From an uncultured Bacilli bacterium (GTDB taxonomy: Bacteria; Bacillota_I; Bacilli_A; RF39; UBA660), in assembly GCA_947594705.1 (NCBI GenBank), contig CANQEG010000002.1, forward strand, positions 1-33,735: a DNA stretch of 33,735 nt, given 5' to 3'. Each line of letters begins with the position of its first letter. Position 1 is the first letter of the stretch. The notes below the pieces were generated by a model, which saw nothing but the letters and a program-made list of their open reading frames with translations, had not been told where the DNA came from and did not search any database. A program made the translations under genes and the position numbers. Shown one piece after another: positions 345 through 12,527 of the stretch.

Positions 345-372
345 TTGCAAAAGTTTAAAAAATATGTATAAT
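345..372 (+). promoter_or_regulatory. Candidate sigma-A promoter of the fibre operon
   Basis: TTGCAA (345-350), 16-nt spacer, TATAAT (367-372), about 40 nt upstream of the first start codon. Confidence 0.45.
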
Positions 373-410
373 AACAATCACAACATTTTAAAAGAAAGAG
401 GTTGAGTGAA

Positions 411-3167
411 ATGAAAGAAAAAAATAAAATTTTGAAAGGATTTCAAAAACTCCGTTTCAAAACGACTGCATTTTTTTTGGGAGCCTCTCTTTTATCGACA
501 AGTTTTACCAGTTTATTTCCTACGATGAAAGCTTATGCGATGGAAAAAGATAGCATGGAAGCATCTTTGGAGAAAAAAAGTAAGGTTATTTTGGCAGGTT
601 CATCTGAGCAAAGTCTTCGCTCAGATGTTGAGGCGCCTCAACATATAATAATAAATATTATCACCTTACCGAATTTAGATGGAACTTATACGGAAATTGT
701 AACTAAGCAAAATCCTGATACATTGGAAATAGAAGAAGAGAAAACGGTGAAACCTTGCGAATTTGGTCAATGGGTCTATCAGAAAGAAACCAATCAAGAT
801 ATACGGACTTGTTCTATTACGGGGTATCAAGAGGTAAGAGAACATGTTCATCAAAACGTATTGTTCAATCGTGATGATGTTTATGAATATCAAAAATGTC
901 TTGTTTGTAATGAAATAAGTAAAGTACCACATCATTATATGGTAAATACCTTCTTAGATGGTACGACTATTTTAACGTGTAAACATTGTGGAAATAATTT
1001 TGATTTTTTAAAGGCAGATATGAATCAAGTTTATCAAAATGCTTTATTACAAGGAATTCAAACGGTTCATACACCTTTTACTTATGAAAATAAAGTGTTT
1101 TTAAAAAGTGATGCTTATTTTGAATATTGGAAAGATACTGCTACCAATGAAATTTTTAGTGTTGCCCATCAATTAGAAGTTTCGCAATCAGAAAATACGA
1201 CACTTTCAAAATGTTTAAATCCTTCTTGTGGTTATCAAAAAAGTGCTTCTAATACTCATCAACATACGGGGACTACTTTTGTTTCGAAAAATGAAATGAA
1301 TGATGTTCTTACTTGTGAATTATGTCATGAACCTTATGAAGATAGTCATGATTATGAATTTAGAGTGAATCCTGACCAAAGTGTTCAACTTATTTGTACA
1401 AAATGTAATCATAGTTTAGATGTAGAGCAAGTAAGAAATGGCAATTTAAATTCGAATGAACAAAAATTAGTACCAAGTAAAGGTTCTGGAGGTGGCTCTG
1501 GTCGTGGAGGCGGAGGTTCTTCAGGCGGCGGTGGTGGAAGCGGAAGCTCTCATAAACATACCCATAATTATACTGTTTTGACGCAAGTGGATGATACTTA
1601 TGAATATTGGAGCTGTGAAAAAGATGGGGATGTTACCAAAATTCCACATCAATTTGCTACGCAAGAAACAGATAAAGAAATTATCACTTATTGTAAGAAT
1701 AAAGGTTGTACTTATCGGAAAGTAGATTTCAAAGAAATACATGATTATAACCGTTATTTAGGAAACTCAGGAAATCAAGAAGTTTGGGGATGTGCAACGT
1801 GTGATAAAACAGTTTTCAAAGATCATAATTTAGGACCTAAACAAATTGATAGAGATACTTTTGAAGAATATCAAAAATGTGAAACACCGGGTTGTGATTA
1901 TGAAATTAGAAAAGAACATGAGCATGATTACTCTATATTACTTCATTGTGATGGAGTTACTGAAGAAAGAGAATGTTCTGGTTGTGGAAAAAAGAAGACA
2001 ATCGAACATATACATCAATTGGGTAAAGAAACAATTGATAGAGAAACGCATGAAGTAGTGAAAAAGTGTGAAACAGCAGGCTGCAATTATGAAGAAAGAA
2101 AAGAGCATGAACATAATTTTTCTAAATTTGTAAGTTGTGATGGAACAAATGAAGTTTATGAATGTCCTGATTGTGGAAAAACAAATACTATTTTACATGA
2201 ACATAAATTGGGAGAAACTTATCAAGAAGATGTTACTTATGATTATTTAAGAGATTGTGAAACACCGGGTTGTGAGTATGTCGAAAGAACTCCTCATTCT
2301 ACAAAACATGAATATCATTTAGATAGTTATGATGAATATTCGGAGACAATGAAATGTGTGTGCGGTAATAGTTATACAAGAGGACATACTTGGAATGAAG
2401 GAACAAGGTTAGAAAGTGGCGAATATTATCAAGAATGTGAAACTTGTGATGCAACAAGAAATTATCACGATCATATTGTTGGAGATCGAGAATATGTTCC
2501 TTTAAAAAATGAAGAAGGATGTTATAAATATATTTATAATTGTAAGATTTGTGGAGAATATGTAACAGAAGATCCACCAGTGCAACATGTGTGGGATGAA
2601 GAAGATGGCATTAAACAGTGTATAAGATGTCGTTATACTGTGTATACCAATCAGGCTTCAGAAATCAATAATATAGAATTAATGCAAGATATTCCGTTAG
2701 AAGATGAAGTTATCATTGATGAAGATGATTTTGAAATTGAAGAATTAGAAGAAGATGTAACAGAAACATTTACTGAAAAAGAAGACATCAAAGAACCGGA
2801 AGAAAAAGAAATAGAAGAAAAGATGGAAGAACCTGAAGATAGTAGCAATGATTTTATAGAAGTAGAAGAAGATGAAATAATTCCTGAAGATGACGATTTT
2901 GAAATTGAAGATTGGAATCAAGATACTGAATCTTTGGAAGAGGAAGATGATTTTCTAATAGAAGATTTCGAAGAAGAATTTGAAGCAGAAGTATCAGAAG
3001 AGGATAATGAAGATGAAATTATTTTTGAAGAATGGGATTTAGAAGAAGAACAACAAGAAAATGCCAAAGAAGAGTTAAAAGAAATTCTTGAAATGGTTTT
3101 ATTTGAAAAAGAAACTCGTAAACAAACATCAACTCTTGTATTAGAAAAAGAAAGAAAAGGGATGTAA
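411..3167 (+). CDS. Secreted Cys/His-rich modular protein with a Gly/Ser linker and a polyacidic C-terminal tail (unknown family)
   Basis: - Start: ATG 411 lies 9 nt after AGAGG; the TTG at 402 in the ORF track abuts the SD.
- Signal peptide: K-rich n-region, hydrophobic core, AYA|ME cleavage-type site.
- Cys content: about 38 Cys by my count, mostly in CX2C/CX4C pairs, each followed by an HxH-aromatic motif (HEHDY, HIHQL, HEHNF, HEHKL and others).
- Linker: GSGGGSGRGGGGSSGGGGGSGSS at nt 1481-1550.
- Tail: the last ~170 aa are dominated by D/E, with repeated DDF(E/L)IE-like motifs.
- No LPXTG or C-terminal TM seen. Confidence 0.8.
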   Translation: MKEKNKILKGFQKLRFKTTAFFLGASLLSTSFTSLFPTMKAYAMEKDSMEASLEKKSKVILAGSSEQSLRSDVEAPQHIIINIITLPNLDGTYTEIVTKQNPDTLEIEEEKTVKPCEFGQWVYQKETNQDIRTCSITGYQEVREHVHQNVLFNRDDVYEYQKCLVCNEISKVPHHYMVNTFLDGTTILTCKHCGNNFDFLKADMNQVYQNALLQGIQTVHTPFTYENKVFLKSDAYFEYWKDTATNEIFSVAHQLEVSQSENTTLSKCLNPSCGYQKSASNTHQHTGTTFVSKNEMNDVLTCELCHEPYEDSHDYEFRVNPDQSVQLICTKCNHSLDVEQVRNGNLNSNEQKLVPSKGSGGGSGRGGGGSSGGGGGSGSSHKHTHNYTVLTQVDDTYEYWSCEKDGDVTKIPHQFATQETDKEIITYCKNKGCTYRKVDFKEIHDYNRYLGNSGNQEVWGCATCDKTVFKDHNLGPKQIDRDTFEEYQKCETPGCDYEIRKEHEHDYSILLHCDGVTEERECSGCGKKKTIEHIHQLGKETIDRETHEVVKKCETAGCNYEERKEHEHNFSKFVSCDGTNEVYECPDCGKTNTILHEHKLGETYQEDVTYDYLRDCETPGCEYVERTPHSTKHEYHLDSYDEYSETMKCVCGNSYTRGHTWNEGTRLESGEYYQECETCDATRNYHDHIVGDREYVPLKNEEGCYKYIYNCKICGEYVTEDPPVQHVWDEEDGIKQCIRCRYTVYTNQASEINNIELMQDIPLEDEVIIDEDDFEIEELEEDVTETFTEKEDIKEPEEKEIEEKMEEPEDSSNDFIEVEEDEIIPEDDDFEIEDWNQDTESLEEEDDFLIEDFEEEFEAEVSEEDNEDEIIFEEWDLEEEQQENAKEELKEILEMVLFEKETRKQTSTLVLEKERKGM
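1848..2225 (+). repeat. Two tandem 189-nt (63-aa) coding repeats inside the Cys/His-rich gene, with a degenerate third copy following
   Basis: IDRDTFEEYQKCETPGCDYEIRKEHEHDYS...CSGCGKKKTIEHIHQLG aligns with IDRETHEVVKKCETAGCNYEERKEHEHNFS...CPDCGKTNTILHEHKLG. The exact 20-mer TGTGAAACACCGGGTTGTGA occurs at 1878-1897 and again at 2256-2275. Confidence 0.85.
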
Positions 3168-3169
3168 TT

Positions 3170-3916
3170 ATGAAAGAAAATAAAAAATGGTATCAATCTA
3201 TTAGTAATATAGTTTTACTAATTGCTTGTATTATTTTAGTACCGATTTTACTTATTAATATTTGGATTATTGCTCAGTCTAAAATAAATCCTGATGAAAT
3301 ACCAAGTGTATTTGGATTTAAACCATTTATTGTGCTTACTGGTTCTATGGAAACAGAAATTTATAAAGGCGATTTGGTTATTTCTAAAGTAGTAGATCCT
3401 TCGACATTAAAAGTAGATGATATTATTGCTTTTAGAGATGCTGAAAATACAGTTACAACTCATAGAATTATTGATATTGTAGAAGATGATGGGGTCAATT
3501 ATTTTATTACGAAAGGTGATAACAATAATACTCAAGATCAAAATTTAGTAGAATATCAAGATGTGGAAGGCCTTTATGTTATGAGAATTCCGGGTTTTGG
3601 AAGTATGATGAATAGTTTAGCTGAACCTATGACTGTTTTAGTAATTTTCCTTGTGATTTCTCTTGCATTTATTATTGGATTTACTATTTCTAGTAGAAGA
3701 CAAAGAGAACAAGAACGAAAAGAGTTTCTAGAATATAAGAAAATGAAAGAGGAAGAAGAAAAGAAAAAAGAAGAAGAAAGTAAGACCAAGAAAACGAAGT
3801 CTATAAAAGCTGAAAAAACAAGTGCTAAAAAAAGTACAACAAAGAAAGTAACAACTACGAAAAAGAAAGAAGCACCGAAGAAAAGTACAACAACTAAGAA
3901 AACAACAAAAAAATAA
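3170..3916 (+). CDS. sipW: SipW-type (archaeal/ER-type, S26B) signal peptidase I with a long Lys-rich C-terminal tail
   Basis: N-terminal TM, VFGFKPFIVLTGSME (Ser box), THRII (His box), TKGDNNNTQD, a second TM, then a ~75-aa K/E/T-rich tail ending KKSTTTKKTTKK. Starts 2 nt after the upstream stop. Confidence 0.85.
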   Translation: MKENKKWYQSISNIVLLIACIILVPILLINIWIIAQSKINPDEIPSVFGFKPFIVLTGSMETEIYKGDLVISKVVDPSTLKVDDIIAFRDAENTVTTHRIIDIVEDDGVNYFITKGDNNNTQDQNLVEYQDVEGLYVMRIPGFGSMMNSLAEPMTVLVIFLVISLAFIIGFTISSRRQREQERKEFLEYKKMKEEEEKKKEEESKTKKTKSIKAEKTSAKKSTTKKVTTTKKKEAPKKSTTTKKTTKK

Positions 3917-3986: not shown

Positions 3987-4015
3987 AAAATAAAAATTAG
4001 AAGGAGGTGAAAACA

Positions 4016-4942
4016 ATGAACAAAAAAATGATAACAGTAATTGCTTTATTGTTAGCTGTAGTTATTACAGGTTATTCTGTAAGTGGTACTTATGCCAAAT
4101 ATGCTACCCAATTAAGTGCTACTAGTGACCAAGCAAGAGTTGCACGTTGGGACTTTAAAATAGGAGATACAGAAGAACCTACTGGAACTACTGTAAATTT
4201 AAATTTATTTAAAAGTTCTTATGAATGCACAACTTCTACAGGTCAAAACTGTGTTCAAGCATTAACAAGTTCAAAAGGTACAGAAAAAGGTACACCTGAT
4301 TCTACTGCTAAAATTATTGCACCTGGAACAAGTGGTAAAGCTGAAATTCACTTATCTGTAGATGCAGAAACAGCTTTCACTTTGGCATTTAGTATGGGTA
4401 GTGGAAATGGAAATAAAGTAACTTTAGACTCAACAGAAGTTGATTCAGCATTAAATGGTTTAAGTAATAAAAGTGATGTTATTGAAGCACTTCAAAATAA
4501 GTTAATTCTTGATGGCGAAAAAAATTACAGTCCAGTCAGATTTAAAGTTTCTGCTGGTTCATCAAGTGGAAGTTCTGAGAAAATAGAAAATTTTGAATAT
4601 TCTAAGTTTGCTGAACAATTAAATGCTTTAATTACTCAACTATCAAATAATCAAGCATTTAAGGAAAGTTATTTTATAGTAAAAGGTGAAAGTGTTGTTA
4701 CATCTGGAAGTAAACCTGTATTTAAACCAGTTTCTAAAAAAGAATTTGCCGTTCCTATTACAGTTGAATGGAGTTGGGCTTATGAATATACAGGAAGCGA
4801 ATATTCTAATAAGAATATTGATGCTGATACTATAAAAAAAGCTGTCAATTTACTAGACACTGCATTAGCTCAAAAAGCTGAGAAAACAATTGATTTCAAT
4901 GTTGTAGTTGATGCTGAACAATATAGTGAAACAGCTGCTTAA
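4016..4942 (+). CDS. TasA/BsaA-like SipW-dependent secreted protein, putative major fibre subunit
   Basis: Strong SD AAGGAGG 8 nt before ATG 4016; the track start at 4007 is a GTG inside the SD spacer. The signal peptide ends VSGTYA|KYATQ, resembling the GGTxA|xF SipW-cognate class seen in TasA and camelysin. Ser/Thr/Gly-rich, with no other TM. Flanked by a peptidase gene and followed by a terminator-like hairpin. Confidence 0.6.
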   Translation: MNKKMITVIALLLAVVITGYSVSGTYAKYATQLSATSDQARVARWDFKIGDTEEPTGTTVNLNLFKSSYECTTSTGQNCVQALTSSKGTEKGTPDSTAKIIAPGTSGKAEIHLSVDAETAFTLAFSMGSGNGNKVTLDSTEVDSALNGLSNKSDVIEALQNKLILDGEKNYSPVRFKVSAGSSSGSSEKIENFEYSKFAEQLNALITQLSNNQAFKESYFIVKGESVVTSGSKPVFKPVSKKEFAVPITVEWSWAYEYTGSEYSNKNIDADTIKKAVNLLDTALAQKAEKTIDFNVVVDAEQYSETAA

Positions 4943-7788: not shown

Positions 7789-8435
7789 AATGGTTAAAAA
7801 GAATTCTTTTTTGGATTATTACTGGTATATTAGTTTTGATATTTCTCTTTAATGTAACTATGTTTTTTGAAAAAAATATTTTGAAAAAAGATTTTCCTTC
7901 TTTCTTTGGGTATTCTCTTTTAGAAGTTGTATCAGGTTCTATGGAACCAACAATACATATAGGCGATTATATCGTAGTAGATACCCATGTGAAAGAATTT
8001 CATGAAAATGATATTGTAACATTTAGAGATGTAAATGGTTCTTTTGTAACACATCGTTTAGTAAAAATTCAAGATGATTTGATGATTACCAAAGGAGATG
8101 CAAATGACCCAGAAGATGAACCAATGCCAATGAGTAGCATTGTTGGGTTATATCGTTTTAAACTTACCTCATTAGGAAAGGTATTTGCTTCTTTTAAAAC
8201 ACCTTTTGTCAGTATTATGATTTTGGTGATTGGAATTTTGATTTGTGTTTTATTAAGTACAGATAAAAATGGAGAACCAATTTTAGAAGAAGATGAAAAA
8301 GAATTTCAAGAATATTTAAAAATGAAAGAAGAAAAGAAAGAAAAGAACATTTTAGAAAAATTAAAAGAAAAAGTGTCAAAAAAGAAAAAGAAAAAAACAA
8401 AGAAAAAAAATAAGAAAAAGAAAAAGAAGAAGTAG
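7785..8435 (+). CDS. sipW: Second SipW-type signal peptidase I with a polylysine C-terminal tail
   Basis: ATGA overlap with the upstream gene. FFGYSLLEVVSGSMEPT, THRLV, TKGDANDPED, a second TM, and a tail ending KKKKKKTKKKNKKKKKKK. It shares the post-TM motif KEFxEYxKMKEE with the first peptidase. Confidence 0.85.
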   Translation: MKWLKRILFWIITGILVLIFLFNVTMFFEKNILKKDFPSFFGYSLLEVVSGSMEPTIHIGDYIVVDTHVKEFHENDIVTFRDVNGSFVTHRLVKIQDDLMITKGDANDPEDEPMPMSSIVGLYRFKLTSLGKVFASFKTPFVSIMILVIGILICVLLSTDKNGEPILEEDEKEFQEYLKMKEEKKEKNILEKLKEKVSKKKKKKTKKKNKKKKKKK

Positions 8436-8443
8436 GTGAGAAG

Positions 8444-9073
8444 ATGAAACAGTTATGGAAAAGTAAAAGATTTCGAAAAAATTTATATCGTTGGCTTTTT
8501 ATGTATGTAGGAGTTATGCTTTTATTTACATCGGTGGTAACGTATTCGAAGTATATTTCAACTCTACAAAGTAGTGATGCAGCTCGAATGCCTACTTTTG
8601 ATGTAAAAATTGCAATGCAAGAAAAATGTGATGATGAAGAGACTACTTGTAATACTGGAACTTTTCGACCAACTAGTGAAATTACGTATCAATTTGAAGC
8701 AAAAACTAATTTGGAAGTAAAAACAGAAGTCTTTTATACCATTATGATTAATAATCGTTTTCATTTTTTAGGATTAACTGATATTACTGATGGTACTCTT
8801 GTTCCAGTAACTGATTTTACATCTTCTGATGTTTCAAAAGATATTGTTACAGGAAGTTCTTCAGAATCTTATAAAACATATACTTGGAAAGTATCATACG
8901 ATGCGGGAAGTGAAGAAATCAAAAAGTATCAAGTAAAAGTTCAATTTGATAATTTATATTGCCCAAGTGGTCAAGTAGATTGTAATAAAGATAAAGAAAA
9001 TTATCAAAACATCTCAAAAACTGCTTACGATATATTAAGAATTGGTTATTCTGCAATTCAGTTAAATGATTAG
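8444..9073 (+). CDS. Small secreted protein with the same N-terminal motif as the putative major subunit (minor or accessory subunit candidate)
   Basis: TSVVTYS|KYISTLQSSDAARMPTFDVKI aligns with VSGTYA|KYATQLSATSDQARVARWDFKI of the 4016-4942 product. SD AGGTGAG upstream. Confidence 0.55.
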   Translation: MKQLWKSKRFRKNLYRWLFMYVGVMLLFTSVVTYSKYISTLQSSDAARMPTFDVKIAMQEKCDDEETTCNTGTFRPTSEITYQFEAKTNLEVKTEVFYTIMINNRFHFLGLTDITDGTLVPVTDFTSSDVSKDIVTGSSSESYKTYTWKVSYDAGSEEIKKYQVKVQFDNLYCPSGQVDCNKDKENYQNISKTAYDILRIGYSAIQLND

Positions 9074-11394: not shown

Positions 11395-11447
11395 TTTTTT
11401 GTTTTACAAGAAAGGGTTTTTGTAGTAAAATGTGTGTAGGTGGTAGG

Positions 11448-11666
11448 ATGAAAAAAATTTGTATATTTTTAATAGAGTTCTATCAGATGATGCCTTTTTC
11501 TACGCATCAAGCTTGTCGGTGTATTCCAACTTGTAGTGAATATACGAAAGAAGCTATTTCCTATTACGGAGTAAAAAAAGGAATTCAATTGGGAATAAAA
11601 CGAATTTTAAAATGTCGTCCGGGGGGAATTTATGGGTATCAACCCTTACGAAAGGATGAAATTTAA
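11448..11666 (+). CDS. yidD: Membrane protein insertion efficiency factor YidD
   Basis: LIEFYQ...CRCIPTCSEYTKEAI...GIKRILKCRPGG matches the YidD signature (CRF-PTCS-Y..EA ... RI.RC.P). ATG 11448 follows GGTGGTAGG. The earlier ATG at 11430 lacks an SD. Confidence 0.85.
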   Translation: MKKICIFLIEFYQMMPFSTHQACRCIPTCSEYTKEAISYYGVKKGIQLGIKRILKCRPGGIYGYQPLRKDEI

Positions 11667-12527
11667 ATGAAAAAATTAGTATGTTTGATGGTATTATTTA
11701 CGCTTTTTCTTTTTACTGGTTGTGGTAATAATGAATTGAATACAATTTATACAACTGTGTATCCGATTGAGTTTTTAACAAAGAGTTTATATGGAAATCA
11801 TGCAACTATTACATCTATTTATCCAAATGGAACGAAAATTAATGAATATGAACTTACTAGTAAACAAATCGATACATATAGTAAAGGAACATTTTTTATT
11901 TATAATGGAACAACAGAAGAAAAACAAATTGCTAAAATGATGGTCAATAAAAGAAAAAAATTAAAAATTATTGATGTAGCATATAGTTTGAAATATGAAT
12001 ATGGTATGGAAGAATTATGGCTTAGTCCAAGTAATTTTTTGATGCTTGCGACTAATTTAAAAGATGGATTAGAAAATCAAGTAGGTTCAAAATATACCAA
12101 TGAAGAAATTGATAAAAATTTTCGCGATTTAGAAGAACGTTTATCAATTATGGATGCAGAGATTAGAAGTACAGCGAAGAATGCTGTTGAACGGGGTAAA
12201 AATACGATTATTGCTTCGCAAAATGTTTTTAAATTTTTAGAAGATTATGGTTTTACCGTTATTAGTTTGGCTGATTATGAAAAAGATTCTCCTAATTTTG
12301 AAGCGTTAAAAAATAATTTTAAATCGGGAACTTATACTTATATTTTGGTTTCTAATTTAGATCAAGATAATGAACTAGTAAAGGAATTAAGTGCTGTTTC
12401 TAAAGTGGAAACTATTACAGTACCATTTATGCATACATTAGAGAAAACAGATGTAGAAAATAATAATGATTATTTTACAATGATGAATGATTTTTTATCT
12501 AACTTAAAAACGATGACAAATAATTAA
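11667..12527 (+). CDS. ZnuA/TroA-family metal-binding lipoprotein (ABC substrate-binding protein), orphan
   Basis: Lipobox LFTGC. Overall resemblance to cluster-9 solute-binding proteins (IYTTVYPIEFL..., ...FIYNG...). No permease or ATPase gene adjacent. Confidence 0.6.
   Translation: MKKLVCLMVLFTLFLFTGCGNNELNTIYTTVYPIEFLTKSLYGNHATITSIYPNGTKINEYELTSKQIDTYSKGTFFIYNGTTEEKQIAKMMVNKRKKLKIIDVAYSLKYEYGMEELWLSPSNFLMLATNLKDGLENQVGSKYTNEEIDKNFRDLEERLSIMDAEIRSTAKNAVERGKNTIIASQNVFKFLEDYGFTVISLADYEKDSPNFEALKNNFKSGTYTYILVSNLDQDNELVKELSAVSKVETITVPFMHTLEKTDVENNNDYFTMMNDFLSNLKTMTNN

Follow-up and report, generated by a model that had tools for sequence, protein, structure and literature searches.

A sipW-linked gene of an uncultured gut Bacilli bacterium encodes an exported Cys/His-module protein that probably forms a metal-clasped rod

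The locus and its first gene

We analysed a stretch of 33,735 nucleotides (nt) from an uncultured Bacilli bacterium (GenBank assembly GCA_947594705.1, contig CANQEG010000002.1, positions 1 to 33,735 of the forward strand; hereafter the window), whose genome spans 1.19 Mb in 105 contigs and is 88% complete. Near its left end lies a single open reading frame (ORF) for a Cys/His-module protein of 918 amino acids (aa), here called P0001, which a first-pass annotation made from the letters alone had described as a secreted string of Cys-pair modules heading a fibre operon. Its TAA stop (3165-3167) is followed 2 nt further on by the ATG of a sipW gene, and a pilin gene, a 919-aa cadherin-like protein, a second sipW, a second pilin and a 557-aa protein come after it (Table 1). 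The ORF likely begins at ATG 411, separated by 9 nt from an AAGAGG-type ribosome-binding site. Directly 5' of the putative operon promoter we noted genes for tRNA-Glu(TTC) and tRNA-Ile(GAT) (2-159), with a GC-poor hairpin and a T-run (approximately 171-195) downstream of them.

The Cys of P0001, 38 in all, are confined to aa 116-740, and its 36 His to aa 78-726. The Cys are distributed over 16 C-x1-4-C pairs, one C-x2-D and five lone residues, and their patterning relative to His is far above chance: a C-xn-C with a His at +5 to +12 occurs 13 times, compared with 2.4 +/- 1.3 in 2000 shuffled sequences, and a C-xn-C followed by HxH six times, compared with 0.15 +/- 0.39. The array of Cys pairs (knuckles) first proposed is therefore no artefact of composition, but the module as it had been defined, with HxH after the Cys pair, holds for only 6-7 knuckles. 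After most knuckles there is one His, after three there is no His at all, and several N-terminal modules have lost Cys. The N-terminal array contains a head module of the conserved form FGxWxY...R.C...GY.E.R.HxH and is Cys-free from aa 195 to 265.

Two 63-aa repeats (nt 1848-2225) had been called near-perfect. They are identical at only 34 of 63 residues (54%) and 128 of 189 bases (68%), and Tandem Repeats Finder did not report them. The Gly/Ser hinge is as distinct as first described, with 64% GC against about 33% locally, and the acidic C-terminus is likewise real, Asp and Glu making up 45% of aa 746-918, where the motifs DDFEIEEL, DDFEIEDW and DDFLIEDF are joined by a looser DEIIFEEW.

Table 1. 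Features of P0001 and its operon (window coordinates), and proteins in other loci that carry related modules
Feature	Position	Strand	Remarks
Promoter-like TTGCAA-16-TATAAT (345-372) and ribosome-binding site aaagaaagagg (391-401)	345..401	+	consensus matches only
Coding sequence of the Cys/His-module protein (P0001)	411..3167	+	single ORF, 918 aa
N-terminal export signal, aa 1-43	411..539	+	basic n-region, hydrophobic core, KAYA↓ME; aligns with the lipobox/signal-anchor regions of relatives
Acidic/polar spacer and degenerate first module, aa 44-110	540..740	+	QNPD replaces the Cys pair of relatives
N-terminal module array, aa 111-355	741..1475	+	knuckles C163, C190, C268, C302, C329
Gly/Ser hinge, aa 356-380	1476..1550	+	relatives carry equivalent Gly/Ser or Pro/Thr/Ser linkers
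C-terminal module array, aa 381-693	1551..2489	+	ten H(xH)-hairpin-knuckle modules, including two 63-aa double-module repeats
Family-invariant terminal cap, aa 694-745	2490..2645	+	C704-x6-C711-x2-C714-x11-H726-x10-C737-x2-C740
Polyacidic low-complexity tail, aa 746-904	2646..3122	+	22-191 residues in relatives
Conserved C-terminal peptide QTSTLVLEKERKGM	3123..3164	+	family motif (KP)-hydrophobic-x-L-x-hydrophobic/basic-[KR][KR]..G
SipW-type signal peptidase 1	3170..3916	+	TIGR02228 90.3 bits vs 51.85 cut-off
Major pilin, putatively TasA-like	4007..4942	+	SGTYA↓KY signal junction; second pilin 8444-9073
Related-module carriers	L022 6546-10628; L023 2813-4924, 4999-5604; L024 212-1576		1360-aa BspA-leucine-rich repeat (LRR) lipoprotein, GH18 enzyme, M6/M7-like peptidase

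A family linked to sipW and a putatively TasA-like pilin

The modules had no Pfam or NCBIfam match in a scan of P0001 and ten relatives, and a PDB sequence search with P0001 matched only engineered Gly/Ser linkers. Relatives came from an exhaustive HMMER search of 1.84 billion cluster representatives, which returned 32 proteins at E<=1e-3, 20 of them at E<=1e-10. A word-indexed homologue search gave one relative and, repeated with a 25-sequence profile, P0001 itself only; scanning metagenomes for the pattern of the family alignment gave 228 pattern matches and no true relative. The named sources are uncultured Bacilli bins of rabbit-gut origin, and the gene occurs in 5 of the 201 genomes of the host's order, spread over five genera. 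We found no earlier description in the literature on TasA in RF39, on sipW-linked Cys-rich zinc proteins or on extracellular zinc-ribbon lipoproteins.

Members share a layout of export signal, disordered spacer, head array, often an internal Gly/Ser or Pro/Thr/Ser linker, regular array, cap, linker and C-terminal peptide. The regular array is built of double modules of about 60 residues with the consensus HxHxY..DDxYEYWxCxCGx6HxL..DGSxxYxCxNxGCxYxK..HxH, and the cap, C-x6-C-x2-C-x8-13-H-xn-C-x2-5-C, is invariant. Family alignments show that the Cys and His positions are conserved in orthologues, as the first-pass annotation required of its proposal. Its emphasis on the acidic C-terminus fares less well. 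The linker after the cap varies from 22 to 191 residues and is acidic only in some members, so that the polyacidic tail and its DDFEIE motifs are lineage-specific (a long acidic tail is limited to P0001 and its closest relative, P0002); what is conserved in this region instead is the short C-terminal peptide (xLxLxKK).

The family gene directly adjoins an orthologue of the first sipW, and a pilin gene comes next, in all 13 loci with enough flanking sequence, that is, the window and 12 others. The SipW1 orthologues are 62-75% identical in six further loci by BLAST, and the second SipW paralogue of the window also scores above the TIGR02228 cut-off of 51.85 (75.7 bits). The pilin belongs to a family of 131 clusters, all annotated "hypothetical" and without a Pfam assignment, which share an invariant SGTYA↓KYT..ARVAKW N-terminus. 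It has no sequence match to TasA/Peptidase_M73 or in the PDB. Its AlphaFold2 model (predicted local distance difference test, pLDDT, 75.9; predicted template modelling score, pTM, 0.72) gave, in a Foldseek comparison with the PDB, a sole match at E<=1e-3, the TasA fibre 8aur (E 2.9e-4, probability 0.99, template modelling (TM) scores 0.28/0.36), and a TasA-like protein stands further down the list. By this modelled similarity the pilins look like an unannotated family of TasA/BsaA-type subunits. Synteny, the SipW score and the pilin model together uphold the placement of P0001 as first gene of a fibre operon.

Both SipW paralogues of the window (3690-3916 and 8259-8432) and their orthologues have a long Lys-rich C-terminal tail beyond the second membrane helix; the tail of P0001 is strongly acidic. 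Just downstream of the operon, at 11430-12527, lie genes for YidD and a ZnuA-family metal-binding lipoprotein (11667-12527, PF01297 E 4e-34), the latter 8.5 kb downstream of the family gene. Their position is suggestive in view of the predicted Zn sites, but these neighbours are not kept, as other family loci differ there.

Repeat number in the family changes by tandem duplication: the gene of one relative (L003, 308-1238) contains 5.1 tandem copies of a 183-nt double-module unit that are 87% identical, a pattern that shows recent expansion of the encoded modules. Two further entries stand apart. In locus L012 (599-2434) the family gene is split into a 161-aa ORF with the lipobox and first module and a 429-aa ORF with the remainder, a division that may reflect a frameshift, pseudogene formation or faulty assembly. 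An 87-aa database protein, P0029, ends in the exact last ~35 residues of P0001 (window 3021-3164) behind an N-terminus that we take to be a lysyl-tRNA synthetase start; it is probably a chimera that arose in the assembly or gene calling of an almost identical genome.

Related but distinct His/Cys mini-modules (HxHxF..YHWH..CGH.., Y.C..C) act as spacers in other Bacilli families (Table 1, last row). These stretches are not covered by any Pfam model, and neither a nearby sipW nor the C-terminal peptide was found with the non-family proteins that carry them. The presence of such modules in proteins unconnected with fibres points to a general extracellular spacer, with the cap and C-terminal peptide marking the fibre-linked family.

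Export and anchoring

The first-pass annotation took the protein to be exported, and its relatives bear this out. The N-terminal region is homologous family-wide and carries a lipobox (LSGC, IGSC, VGGC, IASC and others) in at least 12 relatives, while others resemble signal anchors; one relative has in addition a CW_7 wall-binding repeat. Judged by these sequences, most relatives would be tethered to the membrane N-terminally. The hydrophobic core of P0001, at aa 18-35, is moderate (maximum Kyte-Doolittle value 1.36 over 15 residues), and the lipobox pattern [LVI][ASTVI][GAS]C is absent, there being no Cys before residue 116. P0001, with an AYA-type site (KAYA↓M), and P0002, with TSYA↓E, instead have sequences similar to the GTYA↓K junction of the pilins, and may be cleaved, possibly by SipW, rather than lipid-anchored. 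P0001 contains neither LPxTG nor a C-terminal hydrophobic segment. The earlier remark that the protein has no cell-wall anchor is thus right as to LPxTG but misses the N-terminal membrane tether of most relatives. Lgt and four penicillin-binding proteins are encoded in the host genome, consistent with a walled bacterium that makes lipoproteins.

Predicted structure and candidate metal sites

An AlphaFold2 model of aa 381-745, computed from a 17-sequence family alignment, has a mean pLDDT of 87.8 with no segment below 50 and a pTM of 0.35, the low value expected of an extended chain. The model is all-beta. Each module of about 30 residues is predicted to consist of strand a, a turn, strand b, the Cys knuckle and strand c, which places the knuckles between strands b and c and the His at strand ends. 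On this strand map a knuckle and the His seven residues after it sit at opposite ends of the 5-residue strand c, and would therefore not share a metal. Strand a begins with the His cluster that precedes the knuckle by 17-19 residues, and this cluster is at the same end of the hairpin as the end of strand b; for example, T388 would lie opposite C402, which would bring H383 and H385 beside C402 and D405. A register of HxH, 17-19 residues and C-x1-4-C, clasping the open end of the hairpin, is likely on this model.

The family alignments are consistent with that register. In 133 of 142 cases across the family, the first Cys comes 18-19 residues after HxH. Directly after the disordered linker the array starts with HxH in 23 of 34 members and with a single His in nine, the leading HxH having become HxC in two relatives, and in 26 of 30 members the array ends in a knuckle without a following His. 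The second knuckle position, across 219 aligned units, is Cys in 186, Asp in 25 and another residue in five, and head modules whose knuckle has lost its second Cys have a Cys in place of HxH. The family profile matched only one kind of PDB entry, the C-terminal zinc ribbon of the RNA polymerase I subunit RPA12, at marginal E-values of 0.012 and 0.069.

The exchange of Cys for Asp and of His for Cys, the array boundaries, the marginal zinc-ribbon match and the absence of matches to Thioredoxin_4 or DsbB discussed below favour metal sites over disulfides, and the modules are most probably Zn-clasped hairpins. The metal-site reading of the first-pass annotation is retained in substance, but its order of ligands, Cys and then HxH, is shifted. 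A site formed within the module by Cys and then HxH was considered and found unlikely, given the strand geometry and the array boundaries. A Cys4 ribbon between successive knuckles combined with a His3 site was also judged unlikely, successive knuckles being on opposite edges of the predicted meander. The modules differ from classical C2H2 zinc fingers in spacing, no helices appear in the modelled modules, and no zf-C2H2 Pfam match was obtained.

Proposed role of P0001

Overall, these results indicate that P0001 is probably an exported, metal-clasped rod. Its operon position, its export, the conserved terminal peptide and the strict linkage to sipW and pilin genes argue for an accessory or anchoring role, and we consider it somewhat more probable than otherwise that the family acts as a fibre accessory protein. 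The narrower proposal, that P0001 is an exported structural protein of the surface, a stalk or tether in a TapA-like operon position, we hold at even weight. These likelihoods, and that given below for the terminal peptide, are our own judgement and not computed values.

In the mechanism that we propose, the N-terminus would, after Sec export, either keep the protein at the membrane or release it. The body would comprise two rods of approximately 6 and 12 modules (about 18 in total) joined by the Gly/Ser hinge. Every module of about 30 residues would be a beta-hairpin with a linking strand, its open end clasped by one metal ion, most likely Zn(II), with ligands from two places: H-x-H (or one His, or H-x-C) where the first strand begins, and a C-x1-4-C (or C-x2-D) knuckle after the second. 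The two-knuckle cap would close the array, and the variable, disordered acidic linker and the strand-like C-terminal peptide would follow. As a stalk or tether the protein may space the SipW/TasA-like fibre from the membrane, through the cell wall, while the C-terminal peptide, on its flexible leash, would be presented to the pilin and may help to start or anchor the fibre. A donor-strand-like action of this peptide, suggested by analogy, is doubtful. The analysis itself establishes the family and its members, the synteny, the export signals, the all-beta hairpin model and the way in which ligands are conserved and substituted; we infer the identity of the metal, the site register, the function of the rod and the contact with the fibre.

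A still more specific version can be offered tentatively, at similarly low odds: a metal-dependent ruler and primer, in which a Zn-clasped, wall-spanning stalk has its length set by module number and its peptide complements the first pilin. If so, fibre initiation and attachment would depend on extracellular zinc, and the H-x-H / C-x-n-C hairpin clasp would represent a new and widespread extracellular zinc mini-domain of Bacilli surface proteins. A rod with many metal sites outside a walled gut bacterium would be an unusual design for a stalk, tying the architecture of fibre and biofilm to metal availability and redox state in the gut. Definition of the module, absent from Pfam and NCBIfam, would also improve the annotation of LRR lipoproteins, glycosidases and peptidases.

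Several observations weigh against the metal-clasped, tethered rod. Site geometry was read from the strand map of a protein-only AlphaFold2 model. Modules of the Cx4C type, half of the total, have only three obvious ligands in most relatives; that a conserved Asp in the a-b turn supplies the fourth is conjecture. Some modules of P0001 are kept despite lost Cys, and the zinc-ribbon profile match is marginal. Foldseek with the 365-residue rod model returned beta-propellers only, at TM below 0.1, values that are meaningless for an extended repeat and make the search uninformative. The match of the pilin model to TasA has low TM scores. Finally, P0001, with an AYA site and no lipobox, may be released instead of tethered.

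Alternative explanations

Release would make P0001 a protein of the matrix or a decoration of the fibre: SipW or signal peptidase I would cut at AYA, and the rod would coat, cross-link or cap fibres or matrix; its acidic tail would bind cations or surfaces of the host, and there would be no membrane-tethered stalk. In keeping with this, P0001 and P0002 have their pilin-like junctions in place of a lipobox, a long acidic tail is confined to these two proteins, and P0001 lacks both LPxTG and a C-terminal membrane helix. Most relatives, however, carry a lipobox or a non-cleavable-looking anchor at the homologous position, the acidic tail is not conserved, and rod, cap and C-terminal peptide are alike in tethered and possibly released forms. 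We regard this explanation as unlikely overall, and the matrix or fibre-coating role as plausible for P0001 itself. A cytoplasmic multi-zinc-finger protein, whose hydrophobic N-terminus is no export signal, has next to no probability and is rejected in view of the export evidence. Arrays of Cys/His metal sites are normally intracellular and the core of P0001 is only moderately hydrophobic, but classic lipoboxes stand on the homologous N-termini of relatives, one of which has the CW_7 repeat, translation of the gene is coupled to that of sipW within an operon for a secreted fibre, and related modules are found in lipoproteins and secreted enzymes.

The sites themselves could serve other ends. 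Streptococcal histidine-triad (Pht) proteins feed a ZnuA-family lipoprotein, and on this model P0001 would be an extracellular reservoir or scavenger, buffering or capturing Zn, or else Ni or Cu, for uptake at its approximately 18 Cys/His sites. The number of potential sites and the ZnuA-family gene downstream fit such a role. This gene nevertheless does not belong to the operon and does not accompany the family gene in other loci, the linkage to sipW and pilin genes is strict (13/13 loci), degenerate modules are kept, and the ligands are set in a regular hairpin scaffold with conserved aromatic strands, as is typical of structural sites; metal sequestration, which the first-pass annotation had listed as an alternative, is thus improbable. 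Its other alternative, disulfide-stabilised Cys knots without metal in which the His are incidental, is more improbable still. Extracellular Cys-rich repeats are usually disulfide-bonded, and TapA has two disulfides (PMC10151520). In the P0001 family, however, Asp takes the place of the paired Cys in 25 of 216 units and other residues hardly ever do, which would leave orphan Cys; His is as conserved as Cys and exchanges with it; and CxC and CxxC disulfides are strained. The host genome gave no match to Thioredoxin_4 (DsbA-like) or DsbB, which control genomes did match, a negative that covers these two oxidoreductase families in a genome 88% complete and weighs against disulfides only to that extent. 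The source is a gut metagenome, from which we infer an anaerobic organism.

Comparison with known systems

The modules may be compared with zinc ribbons of the RPA12/TFIIS type, with which they would share beta-hairpins bearing C-x2-C knuckles at their ends and a tolerance of Cys/Asp/His exchange. They differ in that H-x-H on a strand replaces one knuckle, and in being units of about 30 aa that are stacked 6-20 times and extracellular. The best RPA12 match reached only E 0.012; the modelled secondary structure, read from the strand map, is compatible with the comparison. The pneumococcal Pht proteins are Gram-positive surface lipoproteins with multiple Zn sites, as proposed for P0001, but use an HxxHxH motif without Cys, and their genes go with zinc uptake through adcAII instead of with fibre genes. 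The variant-specific surface proteins of Giardia, an anaerobe, are extracellular, CXXC-rich and reported to bind zinc; they are eukaryotic and unrelated to P0001, with a C-terminal membrane anchor and no HxH periodicity.

Like the periscope stalks (SasG/Aap G5-E) and the stalks of fibrillar adhesins, P0001 is envisaged as a rod-like surface protein of tandem all-beta repeats. SasG/Aap stalks are linked to biofilm, and self-association of Aap depends on Zn (PMC9999234, PMC3110253). The copy number of periscope stalks varies between strains (PMC9999234), and repeat number varies across the P0001 family; at the DNA level the repeats of P0001 are 68% identical, compared with 87% over the 5.1 copies of L003. 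Zinc is bound between molecules by G5-E and, in our proposal, within each module of P0001. G5-E stalks are LPxTG-anchored and unrelated in sequence, whereas the P0001 family has an N-terminal anchor and a SipW-processed fibre partner.

A further comparison is with the tapA-sipW-tasA operon of Bacillus subtilis, where the product of the first gene is exported and initiates filaments by means of a short N-terminal strand that complements TasA (PMC10151520); BsaA of Clostridium perfringens polymerises at the membrane before SipW cleavage (PMC11580942). Both TapA and P0001 are exported and encoded by a first gene that is directly followed by sipW and then by a fibre subunit gene, putatively TasA-type in the case of P0001, and both have a folded core between flexible termini. 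TapA has 253 aa, one immunoglobulin (Ig) domain and two disulfides, whereas P0001 has 918 aa and approximately 18 Cys/His mini-modules. Homology to the TapA family found no support in Pfam, NCBIfam or PDB sequence searches, and the modelled part of P0001 is a hairpin array, not an Ig fold. A short terminal strand is the functional element of TapA, and the conserved peptide of P0001 may, by analogy, play a comparable part; this peptide is C-terminal, in contrast to the N-terminal strand of TapA. The family would fill the TapA-position accessory slot in the SipW/TasA-like system of uncultured Bacilli with reduced genomes, and is a testable candidate for starting or anchoring fibres without a TapA homologue. 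The chemistry of zinc knuckles and zinc ribbons, repeats of the stalk type and a first gene placed like tapA in its operon are already known in kind; what would be new is their combination as a hairpin rod with many metal sites that lies outside the cell and is dedicated to a fibre of the SipW/TasA-like type.

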